64,000 nt of DNA from a virus. The translations under genes and the position numbers were made by a program. This document shows positions 1 to 29,220 of the stretch, in pieces (position 1 is the stretch's first letter; each line of letters begins with the position of its first letter). Under the pieces are notes generated by a model. It searched no databases, had not been told where the DNA came from, and worked only from the letters and a program-made list of their open reading frames with translations. The stretch is from positions 1-64,000 of IMG/VR virus record IMGVR_UViG_3300032285_001029, one strand, 5' to 3'.

Positions 1-1
1 A

Positions 2-427
2 ACTGCTAACGTGCAACTGTTTAGCAACATTAATGCAGCAACTAGCGTGTACGCTAATGCAGTAAAGCGCAGCGCAGCTAAAATTGCAACTAACAGCGCA
101 GAGGCAGTTGCTAACTTTACAGCACAACAAAATTACTTTACGCATACAGCTTGCTACAGCGTAGTTAAGCATAACACTAACAACAACTTGTACTTGTATT
201 GCATTTATAACAATGCTAGCAGCTTGTACTTTATTAACAATGTGTTAGCAACTAAGCAGCAAGTAGCACAATACTTAACAGCAAGCGCAGCAGCTAAGTT
301 GCTTAATAATACAGCAACAGTACACAATGTTACTAATAACGTAACGCACAACGTAGTAGTGCGTACTATACAATTAAGCAACATAGTTACTATTAACGCA
401 ATGCAGCAGCAGCTTGTAGCAGCTTAA
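2..427 (+). CDS. Hypothetical (probably early) protein, 5'-truncated by window edge; N/A/T/Q-rich
   Basis: Frame is open from position 2 to TAA at 425-427 and followed by a terminator; no Asp, Gly, Pro or Trp and a single Glu, matching the DNA's lack of GA/GG/TC/CC. Confidence 0.75.
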   Translation, partial: TANVQLFSNINAATSVYANAVKRSAAKIATNSAEAVANFTAQQNYFTHTACYSVVKHNTNNNLYLYCIYNNASSLYFINNVLATKQQVAQYLTASAAAKLLNNTATVHNVTNNVTHNVVVRTIQLSNIVTINAMQQQLVAA

Positions 428-464
428 CAACATACATAGTGCGCACTCGTATAGTGCGTTTTAC

Positions 465-499
465 AGCAGCGTTAGCGTAATGTTAACGCTGCTTTTTTT
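465..499 (+). terminator. Rho-independent terminator
   Basis: AGCAGCGTTAGC-gtaat-GTTAACGCTGCT stem (one G:U) followed by a T run, just downstream of the first ORF. Confidence 0.85.
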
Positions 500-516
500 G
501 TTGTAAAAATACAACA
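499..516. promoter_or_regulatory. Palindromic operator-like site TGTTGTA-AAAA-TACAACA
   Basis: Perfect 7-bp inverted repeat with 4-nt spacer, about 20 nt downstream of the leftward sigma70 -10 element. Confidence 0.5.
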
Positions 517-536
517 GGTGTCGGCTATAACTGCAC

Positions 537-565
537 AGTATAGCACATTTTTTTGCGCAACGCAA
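537..565 (-). promoter_or_regulatory. Sigma70-type promoter, leftward
   Basis: TTGCGT-17 nt-TATACT with extended -10 TG and A-rich upstream region. Confidence 0.65.
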
Positions 566-727
566 GCATTTTTTTAAAATATTTTTATTATTATTTTTGC
601 AAGAGGGTGGGAGACATGCTTTTTTATTAACTATTATTTTTTTTGCAACAGCGCAAGCAAAAATTGAGGGGTATTGCCAAATCACCAGACCAAATCTATA
701 AGTACTTCTTTTATTTTTTTCGCAGTC

Positions 728-3136: not shown

Positions 3137-4516
3137 CTAGCCCCGATTCCAAAAATTCACTTCAGCTGATTTATCAGTTGGCGGTTGCAGGGCTTTGGCA
3201 AGTTTATCTTGTGCTAGACGATTCTTTAATGCTGTTCCTAGTCCTGGCTTTTTTGCGGTCTGTTGTGTTTTACTAGCCTGTAGGTCATGCCGGTTTCCGA
3301 ATTGATCATAGCCTTCTGGACCAACTATTTTGATACCTAAATTTGTCAAATAATCTATAATGTTTAAGTATCGGACGCCATGCTGGAAACTTGGTGTTAG
3401 AATTTTCTCTAGTTCCTCATAAGTAACATATCCCTGTCGCTGTGCTAGTTCTTTAACTTGATTAAGTGAATTACGACGATCATCAATCTTGTCGCGATAC
3501 GCATCGGCCCTTGGTTCAGCAGGTGCTTCAGCTGACTGTTGCAATAGTGCATCTGCCTTATGTTTAGCTACGACCTGACTTCTATAATAACTATAACCCT
3601 TGGGTTTAGACCAGCTGTCATTTATCGAAAATTGATCCCATTTAGCCTGCGCATGTTTCTGATTAACAGCTGAAAACGAAGTTAGTAAATGCCAATTGTC
3701 ATCCGAGTCTTTGTACACTACACAGTAGGTGTCAGCTGCTGGTTTTTCTTGTGTTCGCTGAGTACGTTTCTTGTTAGCAACCTTTTTTAAATTAGCATCT
3801 TGATCAGCATGAGGGCCTCGATCAACTTCGTATCTTAAAGGAATACTGCGGCCGCTGTCGCTAACAGGATCTGTAATTACTAACTGTGGGCCTGTACTAG
3901 TTGCACGTATCATAAAGTTACCTGAGTGCATGTCTAAATCATACTTATATTTTCTATACAGTACACCCACATATTTAAGTGCCTGTTTCAGTTGATCATC
4001 TACAATACCGCCGTACTTTTTGGATTCAGCAGCTTCTTTGCAATTATTGCAAATCAGTCTCCATATGTCATATTCCGTGTCGGTGTCGTCGAGCTCGTCA
4101 TAATTCCCAAACATACGTTCATACATGCCGACTAATGCAGCTTTATCAAACTCTCTAAAATTCTTAAGAGCCTGTAAGTGATACTGTGGGCGTGTGCTTT
4201 GATTAGGATCTCGAGTTATTTTGATTTCATACACAGCGGGAAAATAGGGATTTTCTATACCTTTTTTACGTAATGCTGTGATCATTTCAACATACTTGTG
4301 AAATGCATCATTATTTAATTTACTAGTATACTTGGTTGATTTGATAAAAGTATGCGGATCAGTCGGATGAGGAACTCCGCGACTATACCATCCTGCACCT
4401 CCTCTTCGATTATCGGCATTGCCTAATCGATTTAGAGAATCGTAGTTAAAGGCCTGTTGGCGAGTCTTTTCTTTACGTACGGTATCGTATTGTTCAAGTA
4501 TTTCGATAATTTTCAT
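3137..4516 (-). CDS. T7 gp0.7-like Ser/Thr protein kinase with C-terminal sigma70 region 1.1-like domain
   Basis: GAGWYS Gly loop, FIK lysine, YFPAVY, DMHSGN catalytic loop, VITDPVS; aa ~351-399 KELAQRQGYVTYEELEKIL...IIDYLTNLGIKIV resemble RpoD region 1.1. Confidence 0.75.
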   Translation of the reverse strand: MKIIEILEQYDTVRKEKTRQQAFNYDSLNRLGNADNRRGGAGWYSRGVPHPTDPHTFIKSTKYTSKLNNDAFHKYVEMITALRKKGIENPYFPAVYEIKITRDPNQSTRPQYHLQALKNFREFDKAALVGMYERMFGNYDELDDTDTEYDIWRLICNNCKEAAESKKYGGIVDDQLKQALKYVGVLYRKYKYDLDMHSGNFMIRATSTGPQLVITDPVSDSGRSIPLRYEVDRGPHADQDANLKKVANKKRTQRTQEKPAADTYCVVYKDSDDNWHLLTSFSAVNQKHAQAKWDQFSINDSWSKPKGYSYYRSQVVAKHKADALLQQSAEAPAEPRADAYRDKIDDRRNSLNQVKELAQRQGYVTYEELEKILTPSFQHGVRYLNIIDYLTNLGIKIVGPEGYDQFGNRHDLQASKTQQTAKKPGLGTALKNRLAQDKLAKALQPPTDKSAEVNFWNRG

Positions 4517-4580: not shown

Positions 4581-4838
4581 TTACATACCCCAGCGTAGTA
4601 AGCATAAGGTTTTGTACTGTGGTTTCTTAAAGGCCACGGATATTTCATAGTATTTTTGATGCTGACTTTCGGCCCAACACCAAGCTACCCAACGTGGACC
4701 TGTGTAGTCTATAAGCCACAGTTCTAGTTCACTTAGCCCTTCGATCCAATCAATTTGCGCAGTGGATCTAAAATTAGGCCATGGTACACAGGCAATGTAG
4801 CTGAATGAGTGATATTCTGGATAAGCAGATTTTATCAT
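4581..4838 (-). CDS. Hypothetical Trp-rich protein
   Basis: Start moved to MIKSAY because the track's GTG start lies inside a terminator hairpin. Confidence 0.6.
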   Translation of the reverse strand: MIKSAYPEYHSFSYIACVPWPNFRSTAQIDWIEGLSELELWLIDYTGPRWVAWCWAESQHQKYYEISVAFKKPQYKTLCLLRWGM

Positions 4839-4851
4839 AGGATCTTCACAT

Positions 4852-4882
4852 AAAAAAACAGCTGACACCACGTCAGCTGTTT
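4852..4882 (-). terminator. Rho-independent terminator
   Basis: AAACAGCTGAC-5 nt-GTCAGCTGTTT plus T run, immediately after the 4889 stop. Confidence 0.85.
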
Positions 4883-4888
4883 GGTTGA

Positions 4889-7800
4889 TTAGGCCTGAGC
4901 TTCACCCCAACGTAAAACCATGTTAGTAAGAACTGGGCTACCTTGTGTTAGGTAAACATTAATGGCCAATACGTCTGGACCATTAGGGAATGTACCGCGT
5001 CCGCCAATTGGCGTATTAACCAGTTCTTTAAGTGGGCTTAGGTCGATGCTGTCCTTACTGCTAGGGTTACTGACGAATGAGAAAATAGTTTCGCCAGGTA
5101 GTGCATAGGTATTGCGGCTGAATGTTACTGGCGAACCGTAAGGTAAGCTAGTTACAATTGCGTTGTTTAGCGTAATAGAGTTACTGCTTACACTGGTTAC
5201 ACGACTGTTGCCCGATAGACCTGTTGTAGTGGTAAATGTTACGTCATCGCCTAAACGCACACCAGCTACTGTTGGATCGCTTAGTAGAAACATTGTTGTG
5301 GCGCCCGACTGTGGACCTACTGATATAGTTGCGCCACTTAGTGCCTGCGATGGCGCCACGCTGACTGTAAATCCTGTACCGCTACCGTTCAATGCTGTTA
5401 CAGTTGTTAAGGCAACAAATGTTCCAGTTCCAGATGTAACTGATACATAGTCACCTACTTTTAGTGTCAAATAGTTAGATACTGTAATAGTTGTACTACT
5501 GCTACTAGCACCGGTTATAACTAATGATGCACCCGAGTTAATGTTTAAACTAGCAGCGCCTTCCCATGTAACGCTGGATCCTGCAGCAACTTGACTAAAG
5601 CTAGGCTGTCCACCAGCAAAGTAGGTATAACTAAAACTCTGTAGCGTATTCCAAGTAATATTGTTTACATTAGTCGGATAGTTCTGCGGATTTAACACAC
5701 CTTCAATAACCAGTGCTGAGTTTGAGTTAGTTGTACCGCCTGCAGTAATTTCTAATCCCTGTAACAGTAGTTGCGCACGATTTAGTAGTTCACGTACACC
5801 TAAGTCTCCTACAATAGCGTTTGATACACTAGGTGCTAGTCGAATTGCAAAAGCAGTTGTTTTTCTTGTACTGACTGAAACGTTGGTACTTTGATAGTTA
5901 AAGATGTAGCCGCGATCTGTATCAAATCCGCCGTCAGTCATAAATGCTGAACCCCAATGGCTAACTACAGGAGTAGCTGTTTGATTAATTAAAATTACAC
6001 CCGTGCCCACTGGCATCGTAGCTGCAGTACCTCCACTATATGTTCTAGTAGATCCTGCAGCAAACTGCGAGAATGTACTAGCTCTAGTACAGCCTGTAAA
6101 TGTAGTAGGAGTCTTTCCAGTATAGTTGACAATTTCACCGTCAGCCCATAGTGTACCAGTGCTAGGGAAAAATGTAGTATCTGCTACAGTTAATGTAGTA
6201 TCTATACTAGCAGCCTGTGTAGTTATAGCAGTCTTAGGACCTTCGTTGATAACTTCATATCTAACTGGTTGGTTACCTGAACGCATATAAGCTTCTGTAT
6301 TTACGTTAGCTGCTTTAACACGATGTACAGTAATATAATTACCTTCGGGTCCGCGCAACATCCAATCTATAAAGCCTGCACCGTACCAAGTCCATTGTAT
6401 ACCCACCATCTGCATTTTGTTTGGTAATAGTCCATAACCGCTGGGATTGTAAACACTATTAGTACCGTCGCAACGATCTATGTTCCACTGATTTTGCGGT
6501 GTAATAAATTCTTTAACTTTTACACATTTTACACCTGTCAGGTTTGTGCTGCCTCTGAAGTCCGGTGTGACATATAGTTGGGTATCACTTGTTACACTAC
6601 TAACTAAGTGTGTCATACCTTTGATAACAATCCTATCACCTTCGCTTAATTGTCCAAGGAAACGTGTATTAGTTCCTGTAACAGTATTACTATCAGCATT
6701 AATGGCAATAGTACCTGCAACTTGGAATGTTGAGCTGCGATAACCTACTGCTACAGTCTGTCCATCATATTGCCAAAACTGACCGTTTTGATCGTCGAAT
6801 GTACCTGCACGTACAGTTGCTCCGGCCCAGTTGACTAAACTGACTAAGCAAGGAGTGCCAATGGCAGCGTTAACATCCGCTAAAACACTTTTTGCTAATA
6901 CAGTAAATTGACGTTCATCTACAATGCTGTTTACTGTATAGGTATCATTATAACCGCTAGTAGTAACACCAGTGATAGTAACTACTGCACCCGCTTGCAG
7001 ACCATGATCAACATCGTCTGTAGCTACTGTGATAGTCGATCCAATTGCAGTGCCAGTAGCAGTTAAACTACGCAAATCATAGTTGGGTGCCATTAACAGA
7101 CCTGTGTTGTAGTTAATAGCTTTACCTGACTGATAACGAATATATTTTTTACTTTGACGTATGGCCTGTGCACCATGTGCTGGACCGCCTGTACCTAGCT
7201 GTACGCCGCCGTCAAATGGTCTGTGAACATAAAAACAGTCAGGTCTTGTATATACTGTACCCTGTACAAGATATGGATTATAGTTAATTGTAGCAGCAGA
7301 TAATCCAACAGTTGGAAATTGATTTACTGTAAACTGTGTACCATTTACATTTACGCTAGTTACAGTTGTGTTGGCAGCAAACGATCCTGTTCCTGCACTA
7401 ACAGTCACTTGACTACCTACCGTTAATCCTGTTGTACTAAAAACAGTGATTGTTAAACTGTTTGTAAAACCACTGCCACTGGTCAATGTTCCTGCACTAC
7501 CTACTAGAATTGTACCTGGTGCTCTTGCTGTATATGTCAGTGTTGTCGGTGTAGGTACACTTTCAACGAAGTAAGGACCTTGCGCAAGACTATGACTATT
7601 AACTCCGTTATCCGATGTTATATTAACTAAGATAGTATCGGCAGGTATCAGTCCGTGTGGACTGGCAAATGTTGCTGTAATTACTGGTGTAGCAGCACCG
7701 GTGTAAGTAAATGTAGTAGTCCCAATTGTGGAACCTGTATAAAATCCGCCTTTTCTTAATTGCGTATATGTTGTACTTAATACATCACCGTTACTTGTCC

Positions 7801-8525: not shown

Positions 8526-9704
8526 TTATGTTAGGGCAACAGCAACACCAATAGCTAGTGCAGAAATCAAATTTCGTATTCCCACACCATTGACACTTAA
8601 ATTAGTAAATCCTGCGGTAGTAGCAGTTACGGTAGTGGCACCTAAAGTAGTAAAGATACCTGTACTAGGAGTTACACTGCCAATTGCTATGTTATCAATA
8701 GCACCGGATCCATAACTTAACGATCCTGCTACCAATGTTCCTGATACGTATAAATTCTGGCCAATCCATGCACCGCCAGTAACTTGAAGTGCTCCTGTGC
8801 TAGTACCTGATGATACTGTACTACTAGTTATTTTTACATCGCCACCGACATTTAATTTTTTACCTATACCAACACCACCGGCAGTAACAACAGCACCGCT
8901 TCCAGTATTTGTAGAGTCGGTAGTGTTAATAACAGATAGTGTTGTGAATCGTCCACTCAGAGGAGTAGATACTCCAATAGTCATGTTATCTATACTACCT
9001 GTAGTAGTTGGATTAACTGTTACGGTTCCAGTAGGTGATAAACTTACACTGATTGTTGCAGTTAAATTGGTAAACGAGCCTGCGGCTGGTAATATACTAC
9101 CTATTGCAGCCGGGCTGGCTAGATAATTTGAAAATCCTGTTCCTGATACTGTTCCGCTTGCACTTAGGTTAGTTAGCGTAGCAGAACCAGTTAATGATCC
9201 TGTAAATGAACTTGCTATCACAGCGCCAGTTACAGTAAGACTTGTTAGTGTTCCTACGCTAGTTAAACTGGAACTAACAACATTACTTGCTAGACTAGTT
9301 CCTGTTAATCCGGAAGCACTACCGGCATGTGTATCCACATACGTTTTAATTGCATACTGTGTTGGTACAATATGAGAACTATTACTAGCTAATGTAGTAT
9401 CATTATCGAATGCCGTAACTGAAGGCCCTGAACTAAATGCCAGGCTACTAATAGATGTAAGAGAACCGCTTGATAAGTTGCCAGTTACATTTCCAGTTAC
9501 ATTACCTGTTAAATTTCCTGCAAATGTACCTACAACAGTTGCAGCATTTACTGCTGTAGCATTGACTGTAGTAGCATTGACTGTAGTAAAAGTAGGGCTT
9601 GCAATTGGGACCAAATCCCAAGTCGTTCCAGTCCAAACCCATGTGGATCCATCGGCAGTATAGGTATCGTTTGTATCAGGATTTGTTGGAAATATGATTG
9701 CCAT
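8526..9704 (-). CDS. Tail fibre protein
   Basis: FPTNP...W.W.G..W N-terminus, GNVTGN repeats, VPTQYAIKTYVD, GALQVTGG; hydrophobic C-terminus; TAAATA at 9725-9730. Confidence 0.7.
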   Translation of the reverse strand: MAIIFPTNPDTNDTYTADGSTWVWTGTTWDLVPIASPTFTTVNATTVNATAVNAATVVGTFAGNLTGNVTGNVTGNLSSGSLTSISSLAFSSGPSVTAFDNDTTLASNSSHIVPTQYAIKTYVDTHAGSASGLTGTSLASNVVSSSLTSVGTLTSLTVTGAVIASSFTGSLTGSATLTNLSASGTVSGTGFSNYLASPAAIGSILPAAGSFTNLTATISVSLSPTGTVTVNPTTTGSIDNMTIGVSTPLSGRFTTLSVINTTDSTNTGSGAVVTAGGVGIGKKLNVGGDVKITSSTVSSGTSTGALQVTGGAWIGQNLYVSGTLVAGSLSYGSGAIDNIAIGSVTPSTGIFTTLGATTVTATTAGFTNLSVNGVGIRNLISALAIGVAVALT

Positions 9705-9740
9705 TGTATTCTCTTATAACTTAATATTTATTGATATTTA

Positions 9741-11780
9741 TTACCAGGTGATAGACCCTGACCCACTTGTAAATTTGTAGACTCTATACCCAGGTCTAGT
9801 AACACCGTTATCGTAAGTATAACTAACACCTGAAATAGATCTTAATGCTGGATATGCAGTTAGATATGCAATAATTACGACACCATTGCCTCCCTTCCCA
9901 CCATTACTTGTTGATCCGCTACCAGATGGTCCACTATATCCGCCACCACCTCCACTACCAGTTCCATCTGTAGCCGCACCACCTGTAGTGTTGCCGTTTC
10001 CAGTGCCAGCACCATATGGACTATAACTATCGGCAGTAGGATAAGAACCACCTGCGGCAGTATTTCCTTGACCATCGCCACCACCGCCACCACCACCTGC
10101 ATAAGCAGTGGTTACACCTGTAATAGTTGAAGTAATGCCGATTCCGCCTTTACCTGGCTGACTTTGACTTGGTATACTTTCACCTATAGATCCAGCACCA
10201 CCGCCACCACCACCTGATGCTCTTCCGCCTCCTGCGCCACCGCCACCAGAACCGCCGTTATAACCTTGTCTTGGTGGCCCTGCAGTACCAGAGCCGCCGC
10301 CTGTAAAGTTTGGACCTGCGCCACCACCTCCAGAACCTCCAGGTTGTCCACTTGGTCCTGAATCGGCCTGCCCTCCACGACCGCCGCCAATAGCAGTAAA
10401 TGATCCCAATGTGCTATTATTCCCACTTGTATTACTGCCACCGCCAGTACCAATACTAACAGACAACGAACCTCCGTATGCTAATGCATATGGCCCAGAT
10501 ACACTGCTTGAAAGTACACCTCCGGCACCACCACCGCCACCGATAAAGCTCGAGCCTCCACCTCCACCACCTACAACAAGATATTCTAAGTAAACTTGTG
10601 TGTCAGCCGCTAACGTACCAGTTCCAGCAGCACTTGATCCACCTGCATTATCGGTCGTAACATAGATTGTATATGCTGTTAATGGATCTAGATTAGAAAT
10701 AGTTGCTGGCAGTGATGCAGGGTATGATACATTAGTTGTTACAGTTGTAGGAGAAGTCGTTATAGTATATCCTGTTGCAGTCGGACCTAAATTGAGTCCA
10801 TCGGTCCAACTAACAAATGCTGTCGTTCCTGCAGTCAATCCGGATGTATTTCTAATTACACTAATGCCAGTCGGAGGGTTAGGTACAGTAATTGGATTGA
10901 CTGTATTACTAGTGCCTGGCGATCCAGGTCCGCCAGCATTTACAGCTTTTACTGTAAAATAGTAACTGTTTGAAGGTGTAAGGCCATTTATTGTTACGGG
11001 TAGCGATAATCCTGATACAGATACCGATTGAGATATCAATGCTGGCACACTAGTAATAGTATACGAAGTTATTGGAGATACTGGTGTTGGTGGAGTCCAT
11101 GTGAGTGTAGCAGATGCGCCGGTTATTCTTACAGCAGACACACTAGTTGGTGCATTCGGAACTACTGTTAATCCCATAGAATTGCTGACACCTGCAGAAC
11201 TCGTTCCTATGCCATTAGTAGCTGTGATAGAAAATGTGTATGCAGTCGATGTTGACAGCCCTATAAGCGCAATTGGTTGCGATAGTAAACTTGCATAAGT
11301 GAAATAATTTATACCTGCAGGTGAACTAGTAACAGCATAGGAGGTAATTGTTGCTCCTCCGTTAAATGGCAAATCGAATGTTATAATACATGATGTTCCG
11401 TCACCAGTTCTTCCTGCAACTACGTTAGTTGGCGCACTTGGTACTGTTACAACACCTACAGTATTACTAGTTGCATACACTCCTGTACCGGCTACATTAG
11501 TAGCGGTGACTTGAAATGTGTAAGGTACTGTTGCTAATATTCCAACAATGGATATTGGCGATGTTGTGCCACTGTTAGTATATCCTCCAGGAACAGATGT
11601 AACTGTGTATGATGTAATAGGTAAATTACCGTTATCTACCGGAGGAGAAAATGATACATCAGCAGTAATACCTGTTGCACCTGTTCTGGCCGCTGATACA
11701 CTAGTAGGCGCACCTGGAACGGACGGAATAACGCTGTTAATTGATAATGTTCTTCCAGATAGTGTAGATAATACAGGCAT
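9741..11780 (-). CDS. Fibronectin type III repeat + glycine-rich domain virion protein
   Basis: Four VP.APT.V...ITSY.VTS.P...Y.F.V.A.N..G FN3 units, then EYLVVGGGGGG...GGNGVVIIAY glycine-rich domain. Confidence 0.85.
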   Translation of the reverse strand: MPVLSTLSGRTLSINSVIPSVPGAPTSVSAARTGATGITADVSFSPPVDNGNLPITSYTVTSVPGGYTNSGTTSPISIVGILATVPYTFQVTATNVAGTGVYATSNTVGVVTVPSAPTNVVAGRTGDGTSCIITFDLPFNGGATITSYAVTSSPAGINYFTYASLLSQPIALIGLSTSTAYTFSITATNGIGTSSAGVSNSMGLTVVPNAPTSVSAVRITGASATLTWTPPTPVSPITSYTITSVPALISQSVSVSGLSLPVTINGLTPSNSYYFTVKAVNAGGPGSPGTSNTVNPITVPNPPTGISVIRNTSGLTAGTTAFVSWTDGLNLGPTATGYTITTSPTTVTTNVSYPASLPATISNLDPLTAYTIYVTTDNAGGSSAAGTGTLAADTQVYLEYLVVGGGGGGSSFIGGGGGAGGVLSSSVSGPYALAYGGSLSVSIGTGGGSNTSGNNSTLGSFTAIGGGRGGQADSGPSGQPGGSGGGGAGPNFTGGGSGTAGPPRQGYNGGSGGGGAGGGRASGGGGGGAGSIGESIPSQSQPGKGGIGITSTITGVTTAYAGGGGGGGDGQGNTAAGGSYPTADSYSPYGAGTGNGNTTGGAATDGTGSGGGGGYSGPSGSGSTSNGGKGGNGVVIIAYLTAYPALRSISGVSYTYDNGVTRPGYRVYKFTSGSGSITW

Positions 11781-27123: not shown

Positions 27124-29220
27124 TTATAGTCCCATCATTTTTTGAATTAAGTCTTTCATAGAACCATTAAGTGTATTATGCGTTTGTTCTGATTCACGAC
27201 TTGGCTGTTCTTGAGGTGCAGAATGCACATTGGCAAGTTTAAGAATATGTCCTAATTCTTGTTGCCCGCCTTCATGATCGTGCGTATCTGTACTTGGATC
27301 TGCATGTTCAATATCTCTAATTATGGCGTGTAGATCATCTTCACTGGCATTTGGAAACTGTCCATCGTCAAATGCTTTTTTGATGTGAATTTTAACCCAT
27401 TGTCCGCCGCGTGGGAAATTCTTTTCTTCTTTATTCCAAAAGCCTTGTGCAAATTTTTTCAGTTGCTCGTAACCGGAACCGTATTGTGAGTAACCTAATT
27501 GTTGTGGATCGCATCCACAGTCTTCGATAATTTCTTGGATCGATTTTACACCATGACCAAAATCTAGTTTTGTTTCTAATGTGGCGCCAGCTTTACGTGC
27601 TTTACGTAATGCGGATACAATTGCAGATTCTTCGACTGGGCTAAATTTTTGTGGATGATCGTCAGGCATATCATCTTCTGCCACAGGCGCCGGAGCTGCT
27701 TCTTCAGGTGCAGGAGGCATTGCTTCGGGTGCAGCAGCAGGCTCAGGTGCAGCAACAGGTTCAGGCGGTGGAATCTCAGCCGAACCTTCTTTGCCCATTT
27801 GATCCAAGTCTAATTGATCAATAACATTAGGATCTGGGAATTTATCTTTATTTGCAAGTAACCACGCACCGATTGCGCCTCTTACATCTACATTATCAGG
27901 TGCATCTTTTAAAAGCATATTTAATTCCGGATCATCGATAATGCCTTTTAAACTATTTTGTGGATCTATACCTTGTTCTCCTGGTAACATAGGAGATTGC
28001 ATAATTTCTTTAAATTTGTTAATAGCATCATTTTGTGCAGTTCTATTAGGACTGAACAATCCATTACCTTCTTCATTAACCATACTTTCAATAAAGTTTT
28101 CATAACCTTCTAATTCTAGAAAACTTTCTTCTACTTTATCATCACAAATACAATCTTTAGATGGCCTGTCACATGCGTCGCAATATCCGTCGTTACCTTC
28201 GTCACCGTCTTCGCCTAGTATATCATCTGCTGTTAATTCTTTAACAGGAATATCCGACTCGTCAACTAGCTTATAAATGTACGGGAATACTGATTTTAAT
28301 TCTTCATTAAATGTACGAATGGTCAATCTGTCAACCCAGTCATTCATAATATCTTCTGGGATATCTTTTGCTAAATGCTCTTCGAAGCTTTCTGCAAATT
28401 GTCGATAATAAGTAGGACGTTGTAGACTTAGAATTTCTTTTTTAACTTGATCAATGCGTTCCATTACTTTACTAGTAATGTCGCCCATTGCTTCACTGAT
28501 CTGCTCTTGACGGCCTACGTAATTTTTAAATTTACGTAATTGTCCAAGTTCTTCACTTAGACTGATAATGTATGTACCAATGCTGTCGTAAGGATTGCCG
28601 CCTGCTTTGATATGTTCGGCAAGAGCACGAGCACCATTGATATTCTTGCTTGGAAAACGGAAACGTTCGCCTTGTGAATTTTCAATGTAGATACTGTCTA
28701 CGTGCATTGTTCTGCCAGCTGGTAGTTCCATATTTACAGGCTGATTATGCTTAATAATTAGTTGTGCTTCGCCTAAGTCCTGATAGCTCATTCTGGATGT
28801 GCCATACAACTTATTTTCCATGATAAAATCTTCCTTACGTTGTGAGAAATATTGGTAGTCTCTTTTTTCTAATTGACTTTTGTTTAGTCGTTGCATTTTA
28901 AATTTTAATAATCTGTCTCTAGCAAAATTTTTAAAACTACGAATGAATTTGTAAGCACCTTTATGTGCAACTCCGTCCTCATCGTTGACAAGATCACTGC
29001 CTGCTTGCACAACAATGCCATCGTCCTTGTCTAGAATAATAACAACGGTACCTAAAGGAACATCGTTTTCATTATAGACAAATTCAAAGAATCGTGCCTT
29101 GGGTATATCGGTTTTTTTGCTTAAAACTTCGCCGGCTTCATCGCCGATTTCAATGTCCGGAAAGCGGGTTTGTATCTTTCCGTACAGTTCTTTTGCTATG
29201 ATGTCTAAGTTTGCGTCCAT
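27124..29220 (-). CDS. Large acidic putative head/prohead protein
   Basis: Start adjusted to MDANLDII (TAAATA 4 nt upstream); Glu/Asp-rich, Pro/Ala linker; next to terL. Confidence 0.55.
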   Translation of the reverse strand: MDANLDIIAKELYGKIQTRFPDIEIGDEAGEVLSKKTDIPKARFFEFVYNENDVPLGTVVIILDKDDGIVVQAGSDLVNDEDGVAHKGAYKFIRSFKNFARDRLLKFKMQRLNKSQLEKRDYQYFSQRKEDFIMENKLYGTSRMSYQDLGEAQLIIKHNQPVNMELPAGRTMHVDSIYIENSQGERFRFPSKNINGARALAEHIKAGGNPYDSIGTYIISLSEELGQLRKFKNYVGRQEQISEAMGDITSKVMERIDQVKKEILSLQRPTYYRQFAESFEEHLAKDIPEDIMNDWVDRLTIRTFNEELKSVFPYIYKLVDESDIPVKELTADDILGEDGDEGNDGYCDACDRPSKDCICDDKVEESFLELEGYENFIESMVNEEGNGLFSPNRTAQNDAINKFKEIMQSPMLPGEQGIDPQNSLKGIIDDPELNMLLKDAPDNVDVRGAIGAWLLANKDKFPDPNVIDQLDLDQMGKEGSAEIPPPEPVAAPEPAAAPEAMPPAPEEAAPAPVAEDDMPDDHPQKFSPVEESAIVSALRKARKAGATLETKLDFGHGVKSIQEIIEDCGCDPQQLGYSQYGSGYEQLKKFAQGFWNKEEKNFPRGGQWVKIHIKKAFDDGQFPNASEDDLHAIIRDIEHADPSTDTHDHEGGQQELGHILKLANVHSAPQEQPSRESEQTHNTLNGSMKDLIQKMMGL

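Follow-up and report, generated by a model that had tools for sequence, protein, structure and literature searches.

The first-step-transfer region of phage T5 is a case of restriction-site avoidance, in which early phage DNA has been cleared of a motif. DpdA-type enzymes of 7-deazaguanine modification fall into families DpdA1 to DpdA4, and the DpdA2 enzymes tested so far modified <0.1% of G (PMC10516641). The target of CAjan DpdA is GA and GGC (PMC7544227). Bacterial transcription in vitro is almost eliminated by 7-substituted deazaguanines, the block being seen at initiation and not at elongation, and the authors point to the G of the −35 element (PMC4838386). The DNA of phage PA5oct, which depends on host polymerase (PMC7318152), carries modified G at GA and/or GG, as judged by restriction pattern (PMC12191111). 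In Bacillota, Rho shapes gene composition (PMC13323073).

The locus described here, in which genes are purged of GA and GG (GR) and of TC and CC (YC), shares its sequence context with DpdA-type modification, and its relatives carry a fold of the tRNA-guanine transglycosylase (TGT) type together with FolE, QueD and QueE. However, purging of the target step from genes or promoters is unreported for DpdA systems, and the cluster found here has a glycosyltransferase-like gene and no QueC that we could find in PA5oct or in relatives G002 and G003. With the restriction-site avoidance of T5 it has in common that early DNA is cleared of a motif, but the motif here is two bases long, strand-dependent and bounded by promoter and terminator, the encoded proteins are restricted to about 15 kinds of amino acid, and the cost likely comes from the phage's own enzyme. 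Rho avoidance likewise includes coding-strand YC loss in transcribed genes, yet it is a diffuse purine bias in RNA with no absolute ban and with promoters and GA/GG unaffected (PMC13323073). We found no description of a GR/YC-purged gene in the literature.

The window, i.e., the whole stretch of DNA analysed, comprises 64,000 nucleotides (positions 1 to 64,000 of IMG/VR record IMGVR_UViG_3300032285_001029). As judged from its sequence, the source is an uncultured PA5oct/Rak2-like jumbo phage from lake water, with an MCP 67 to 72% to the PA5oct/Rak2/GAP32 group of jumbo phages. The first-pass annotation had counted a single GA, a single GG and neither TC nor CC in positions 1 to 446 (GC content, 39.5%) and four further banned steps ahead of 600, which was borne out on recount (the four lie at 447, 517, 521 and 523); ordinary usage was back from 603. 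Within positions 1 to 500, 3 banned steps were seen and approximately 98 were expected. The longest GR/YC-free run in the block was 344 nt, compared to 57 nt outside it (in a 141,855-nt contig), and other dinucleotide sets gave runs of 27 to 99 nt only. The depletion had been attributed to a single gene; the depletion stood, whereas that gene, which encodes a 203-aa protein (P0002), is cut by the window start, the block beginning approximately 820 nt to the left of it. On L005, a 161-kb scaffold that is an identical assembly of the same phage (0 differences in 10 kb), the whole block extends from 9,367 to 10,787 (1,421 nt), contains 11 GA/GG/TC/CC steps (approximately 256 expected), and spans a 117-aa gene and then the 203-aa gene. 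This pair closes an extended array of small genes that have sigma70-like promoters. Because the same protein is present on ENA, JGI and Logan assemblies and has 327 homologues, the block is no assembly artefact, and with two genes affected here and 45 of 75 homologous genes purged, the depletion is not confined to one short ORF either; both outcomes had been named as counting against the pattern. Features at the right end of the block are listed below.

Features at the right end of the purged block (positions in the window)
Feature	Position	Strand	Basis
Right end of the GR/YC-free block	1..602		Dinucleotide counts
Last 141 codons of the conserved 203-aa early gene P0002	2..427	+	ORF, homologues, L005
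Sole GA and GG of the gene (its one Glu codon plus the next base)	101..104	+	Count
Intrinsic-terminator-like hairpin, 13 pairs plus T run, GR/YC-free	465..499	+	Predicted; similar hairpins after most homologues
16-nt palindrome	500..515		Copies at both block promoters (L005 9,389 and 9,886), nowhere else in the contig
Leftward sigma70-like promoter, recoded −35 TTGCGT, aimed into the gene	537..565	−	Predicted
Block edge, run of GA/GG steps	603..614		Count

The palindrome is a possible operator. The leftward promoter was retained in the three closest relatives and missing from many other purged homologues, and antisense transcription was rejected on these grounds as a general cause of both-strand purging. 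Positions 520 to 780 of the window are non-coding, with A/T tracts, this leftward promoter and a converging terminator (733 to 756), and could be a terminus or packaging signal.

The full-length 203-aa protein lacks Asp, Gly and Trp and has a single Glu and a single Pro; the earlier description, of the part within the window, had been no Asp, Gly, Pro or Trp and one Glu. Its 327 close homologues form 195 clusters at 50% identity. Among 75 distinct homologous genes with DNA, 45 were purged on both strands, 13 were normal and the remainder were intermediate, with exactly zero GA/GG/TC/CC steps in 15. Since normal homologues exist, the unusual composition is not a requirement of the fold. In a quick tree, confounded by composition, relaxed genes nested within the purged group; the purged trait may have been lost repeatedly in the family, although composition may distort the tree. 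The gene is usually found at the edge of an early array, beside a signal-rich non-coding zone. Neither the region nor the protein had a match among cultured phages, and the gene family was absent from PA5oct, GAP32, Phosso, Vibrio phage 2.275.O and 19 IMG/VR contigs.

No function was named by Pfam, PHROG, Foldseek PDB or Atlas, and four uncharacterised viral models matched the protein. The predicted model (pLDDT 91) is a split Sm-like barrel (residues ~25 to 70 and ~175 to 203) with a large insert of ~100 residues. The top fold match, YaeO/Rof (Z 6.8, rmsd 2.2, 69 aligned, 3% identity), was within the chance range, and WYL domains and Hfq were nearly tied with it (all Z 5 to 6.8, identity 3 to 22%). 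The protein would share the barrel with these Sm-like proteins and differs from them by the insert, the Z scores being weak. We take the product to be a putative early regulator that binds nucleic acid; a role in opening modified DNA to polymerase is conjectural.

The ban is, on the evidence of codon usage and substitutions, maintained by selection and not by mutation or amino-acid make-up. The gene contains 5 banned steps, compared to 37.9 ± 5.2 expected when its protein is written with the codon use of the genome, and the minimum in 2,000 resamplings was 21. Codon junctions respected the ban (G|A, 3; G|G, 9; versus G|C, 896). Where normal homologues have Glu, purged genes have Gln (25%), Thr (19%) or Ala (16%) and Lys in only 5%, and Pro gave way to Ala in 42%. 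GC content was kept at 0.33 to 0.44, C-ending codons were favoured where allowed, and YC on the coding strand was the stricter ban. Because of these look-alike replacements (Glu by Gln, Pro by Ala) and the kept GC content, selection is favoured over C-to-T/G-to-A change. The earlier proposal of selection against a dinucleotide context is thus supported by resampling, junctions and substitution spectrum alike; the swaps that it predicted on alignment (Asp to Asn, Glu to Gln, Gly to Asn or Ala) were seen in part, as Asp to Asn, Glu to Gln and Gly to Ser or Asn, Glu going also to Thr and Ala.

Around the purged gene, the ban runs from approximately −75 to the terminator and fades beyond, the first cluster of banned steps lying mostly at a distance of 40 to 250 nt on both sides of the gene. 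Between −36 and −1 of nine promoters, namely those at loci with GR/YC-containing DNA further upstream and with starts predicted from consensus, 0 of 49 G were in a GR step and 0 of 59 C in a YC step. TTGAC was present in 0 of 31 promoters predicted for purged genes, whose −35 element is TTGCNN or similar instead of TTGACA, and was often present at normal homologues. At the related locus L007, small plus-strand genes were devoid of TC/CC yet retained GA/GG, and minus-strand genes were the mirror image; it is therefore the template strand that lacks GR. Such template-only genes were also found in the window's phage, ~4 kb further left, and in relative G008 (a 743-nt example), in which the rule flips with gene direction. 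They are scattered among normal genes over >10 kb and encode small acidic proteins, GA/GG being kept on the coding strand, whereas purged genes lack GA/GG as well (zero in 15 genes). The rule initially described as strand-symmetric consequently applies to the block and the promoters and fails for many neighbouring early genes, in which only the template strand is kept free of GR. The ban follows transcription units, and the finding that the untranscribed promoter is clean on both strands and other early genes on the template strand only points to DNA and RNA polymerase. The presumed modification more plausibly targets G in GR than C in YC. CmdT is a toxin directed at GA in mRNA; toxins of this kind were rejected, the template-only genes being rich in GA. 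Avoidance of UV dimers was rejected as well (TT/CT are retained, and the strand is wrong).

The contig ends ~670 nt upstream of an exonuclease gene. Among the closest exonuclease relatives with enough flank, FolE/QueE cluster genes were present in 31 of 32 loci, just past the point corresponding to the end of this contig, starting with QueE, FolE and adjacent genes, after which come a glycosyltransferase-like gene (a weak call) and a 542-aa protein bearing a DSGG motif. This protein was reached neither with CAjan DpdA nor in a PDB sequence search and was detected by fold only, its fold resembling those of tRNA-guanine transglycosylases/DpdA (Z 17.4, rmsd 4.8, 298 aligned; Z 15.2 with DpdA 7ui4) versus Z scores of at most 11.8 for unrelated barrels. 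Pfam QueC/TGT searches missed the cluster, and the two QueC-like matches were small stand-alone genes. The precursor genes FolE, QueD and QueE were found in G002, G003, PA5oct and G008. They are not on the present partial contig, which ends before the cluster; no modification gene was found on it or on any contig with a visible fully purged gene, and no assembly was found that carries this phage on into the cluster. Candidates for the modification genes that the first-pass annotation proposed to look for were thus found in close relatives, as a cluster of FolE/QueE and a DpdA fold. In G002, the cluster is present and the gene is only partly purged.

At locus L363 (3699 to 10001), clamp and exonuclease have none of the DpdA/FolE/QueE cluster between them, and the synonymous bias (0.93) was the weakest of 20 relatives (0.34 to 0.73 in the others); this locus is a natural negative control for the cluster, in one case only. 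At loci with normal homologues, there was little or no bias (0.80 to 1.62, versus mostly 0.24 to 0.57, to which the block itself contributes). Bias across a genome is not specific, because GAP32, without DpdA, shows 0.78. Nor is DpdA sufficient, because a DpdA-like gene is present without GR bias or block in G003 (IMG/VR, 362,810 nt, complete) and DpdA with bias and without a block in Vibrio phage 2.275.O. Synonymous G before T was depleted instead in G003 (0.69), which hints at another target motif. Near the purged gene of three relatives, a carbamoyltransferase lies beside a DnaB-like helicase (L007 14027 to 16972 and L009 9205 to 11319), which may point to cytosine modification.

The cultured phage PA5oct carries the same FolE/QueE/DpdA-like cluster, and in its genome (NC_071039.1) positions 267,341 to 267,557 form a 217-nt stretch that is GR/YC-free on both strands and consists of tandem promoters (−35, TTGCAA) ahead of tRNA genes. 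In GAP32, without the cluster, the longest clean stretch was 59 nt. Synonymous bias in long genes was alike in the window's phage (G|A, 0.78; G|G, 0.75) and PA5oct (0.86 and 0.71). TTGAC is retained in most promoters of PA5oct, and there is no purging of its early genes, which lie in a 39-kb terminal repeat. Further GR/YC-free stretches of PA5oct were observed at 264,990 to 265,135, at 239,311 to 239,460 and at about 27,590 to 27,690.

The best reading of these data, which we consider probable, is that of genes rendered modification-free by their own sequence. A DpdA-type transglycosylase would swap G before A or G for a 7-substituted 7-deazaguanine after replication, and incoming virion DNA would therefore already be modified. 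For the host sigma70 RNA polymerase, modified G would be an obstacle on either strand of a promoter and on the template strand of a gene body. Genes needed first, before any phage protein is made, would stay unmodified through the loss of the target step, at the price of Asp, Glu, Gly, Pro and Trp; the removal is observed, and the purpose is presumed. Purging would accordingly have two grades, template strand only or both strands (promoters and this gene pair), and the simplest reading of the both-strand cleaning of this gene may be that the highest and earliest output is needed. The in vitro data leave the purge of the gene body unexplained, because the block there was at initiation (PMC4838386). 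Of the two readings initially offered, the one in which the phage's own modification of G is kept off first-read genes thus fits promoters, strands and gene content, the modification in this phage itself being presumed; the other, in which first-injected DNA hides from a host enzyme, is weakened, since edges track promoters and terminators and template-only genes are scattered over >10 kb.

The same modification might instead be read at GR by a host nuclease or glycosylase (END-like or type IV) or by a DNA-modifying toxin, with the purged genes encoding early counter-measures. END nucleases do target the modified G of PA5oct, which encodes an inhibitor (PMC12191111), both-strand purging of this gene fits, and repeated relaxation within the purged clade would fit host changes. 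Yet a cut at any position harms the genome, whereas the ban stays within individual transcription units, changes with the direction of the gene and has altered the −35 element, and we regard this explanation as unlikely. Messages could also avoid UC and CC to escape Rho, the 203-aa protein then being a Rof-like Rho inhibitor: the primary site of Rho binds YC (PMC5314796), the coding strand avoids YC the more strictly, and YaeO/Rof is the best fold match. However, Rho reads RNA and so explains neither why the promoter core, which is not transcribed, is clean and the −35 element recoded nor why the message has lost GA/GG; many fully purged homologues have no antisense promoter, and the fold match is one that chance could provide, so that we hold an escape from Rho to be improbable.

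It is more doubtful still that the block represents the end of the genome that is injected first, alone exposed before counter-measures in the style of T5 pre-early DNA. The usual position of the gene at the edge of an early array and the placement of PA5oct early genes in its terminal repeat would agree with this, but banned steps reappear close to the gene on either side, purged units alternate with normal genes without a single contiguous clean segment, and the clean PA5oct promoter at 267 kb is away from the record ends. A context-specific deaminase or other mutational process that locally erased YC/GR is hardly credible, since, although Asp to Asn and Gly to Ser or Asn are expected products of G-to-A change, the substitution spectrum (Glu to Gln, Thr or Ala rather than Lys, Pro to Ala rather than Ser or Leu), the kept GC content and the C-ending codons favoured where allowed largely refute it.

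The promoter test and the cultured model, PA5oct, are new here, and PA5oct offers a system for direct testing. Under modification-free genes as the reading, the locus bears on how transcription by host RNA polymerase begins when phage DNA is hypermodified and on what hypermodification costs, whole proteins being forced into a 15-amino-acid alphabet; the pattern would serve as a readout of modification motif and first-expressed genes in uncultured phages. A tentative extension, possible though speculative, is a transcription timer of a widespread jumbo phage group written in base chemistry, in which a bulky modification of guanine in the GR context silences the genome for host polymerase, a few purged genes escape and the product of this gene is the first factor to open the rest. 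If that were true, purged islands would reveal the modification motif and the earliest genes of each phage from sequence alone.

Other genes of this phage were observed in passing. A 459-aa protein encoded at positions 3137 to 4516 of the window (minus strand) had a weak T7-kinase match and a match to sigma70 region 1.1 (348 to 402; E value, 4.9e-5, over the cut-off). The early array on L005 includes tRNA-Met, tRNA-Leu(TAA) and tRNA-Arg(TCT) at 4645 to 4902, and beyond the window, at genome positions 127,607 to 133,194, small genes that by eye look like glycosyltransferases follow the tail-fibre genes.
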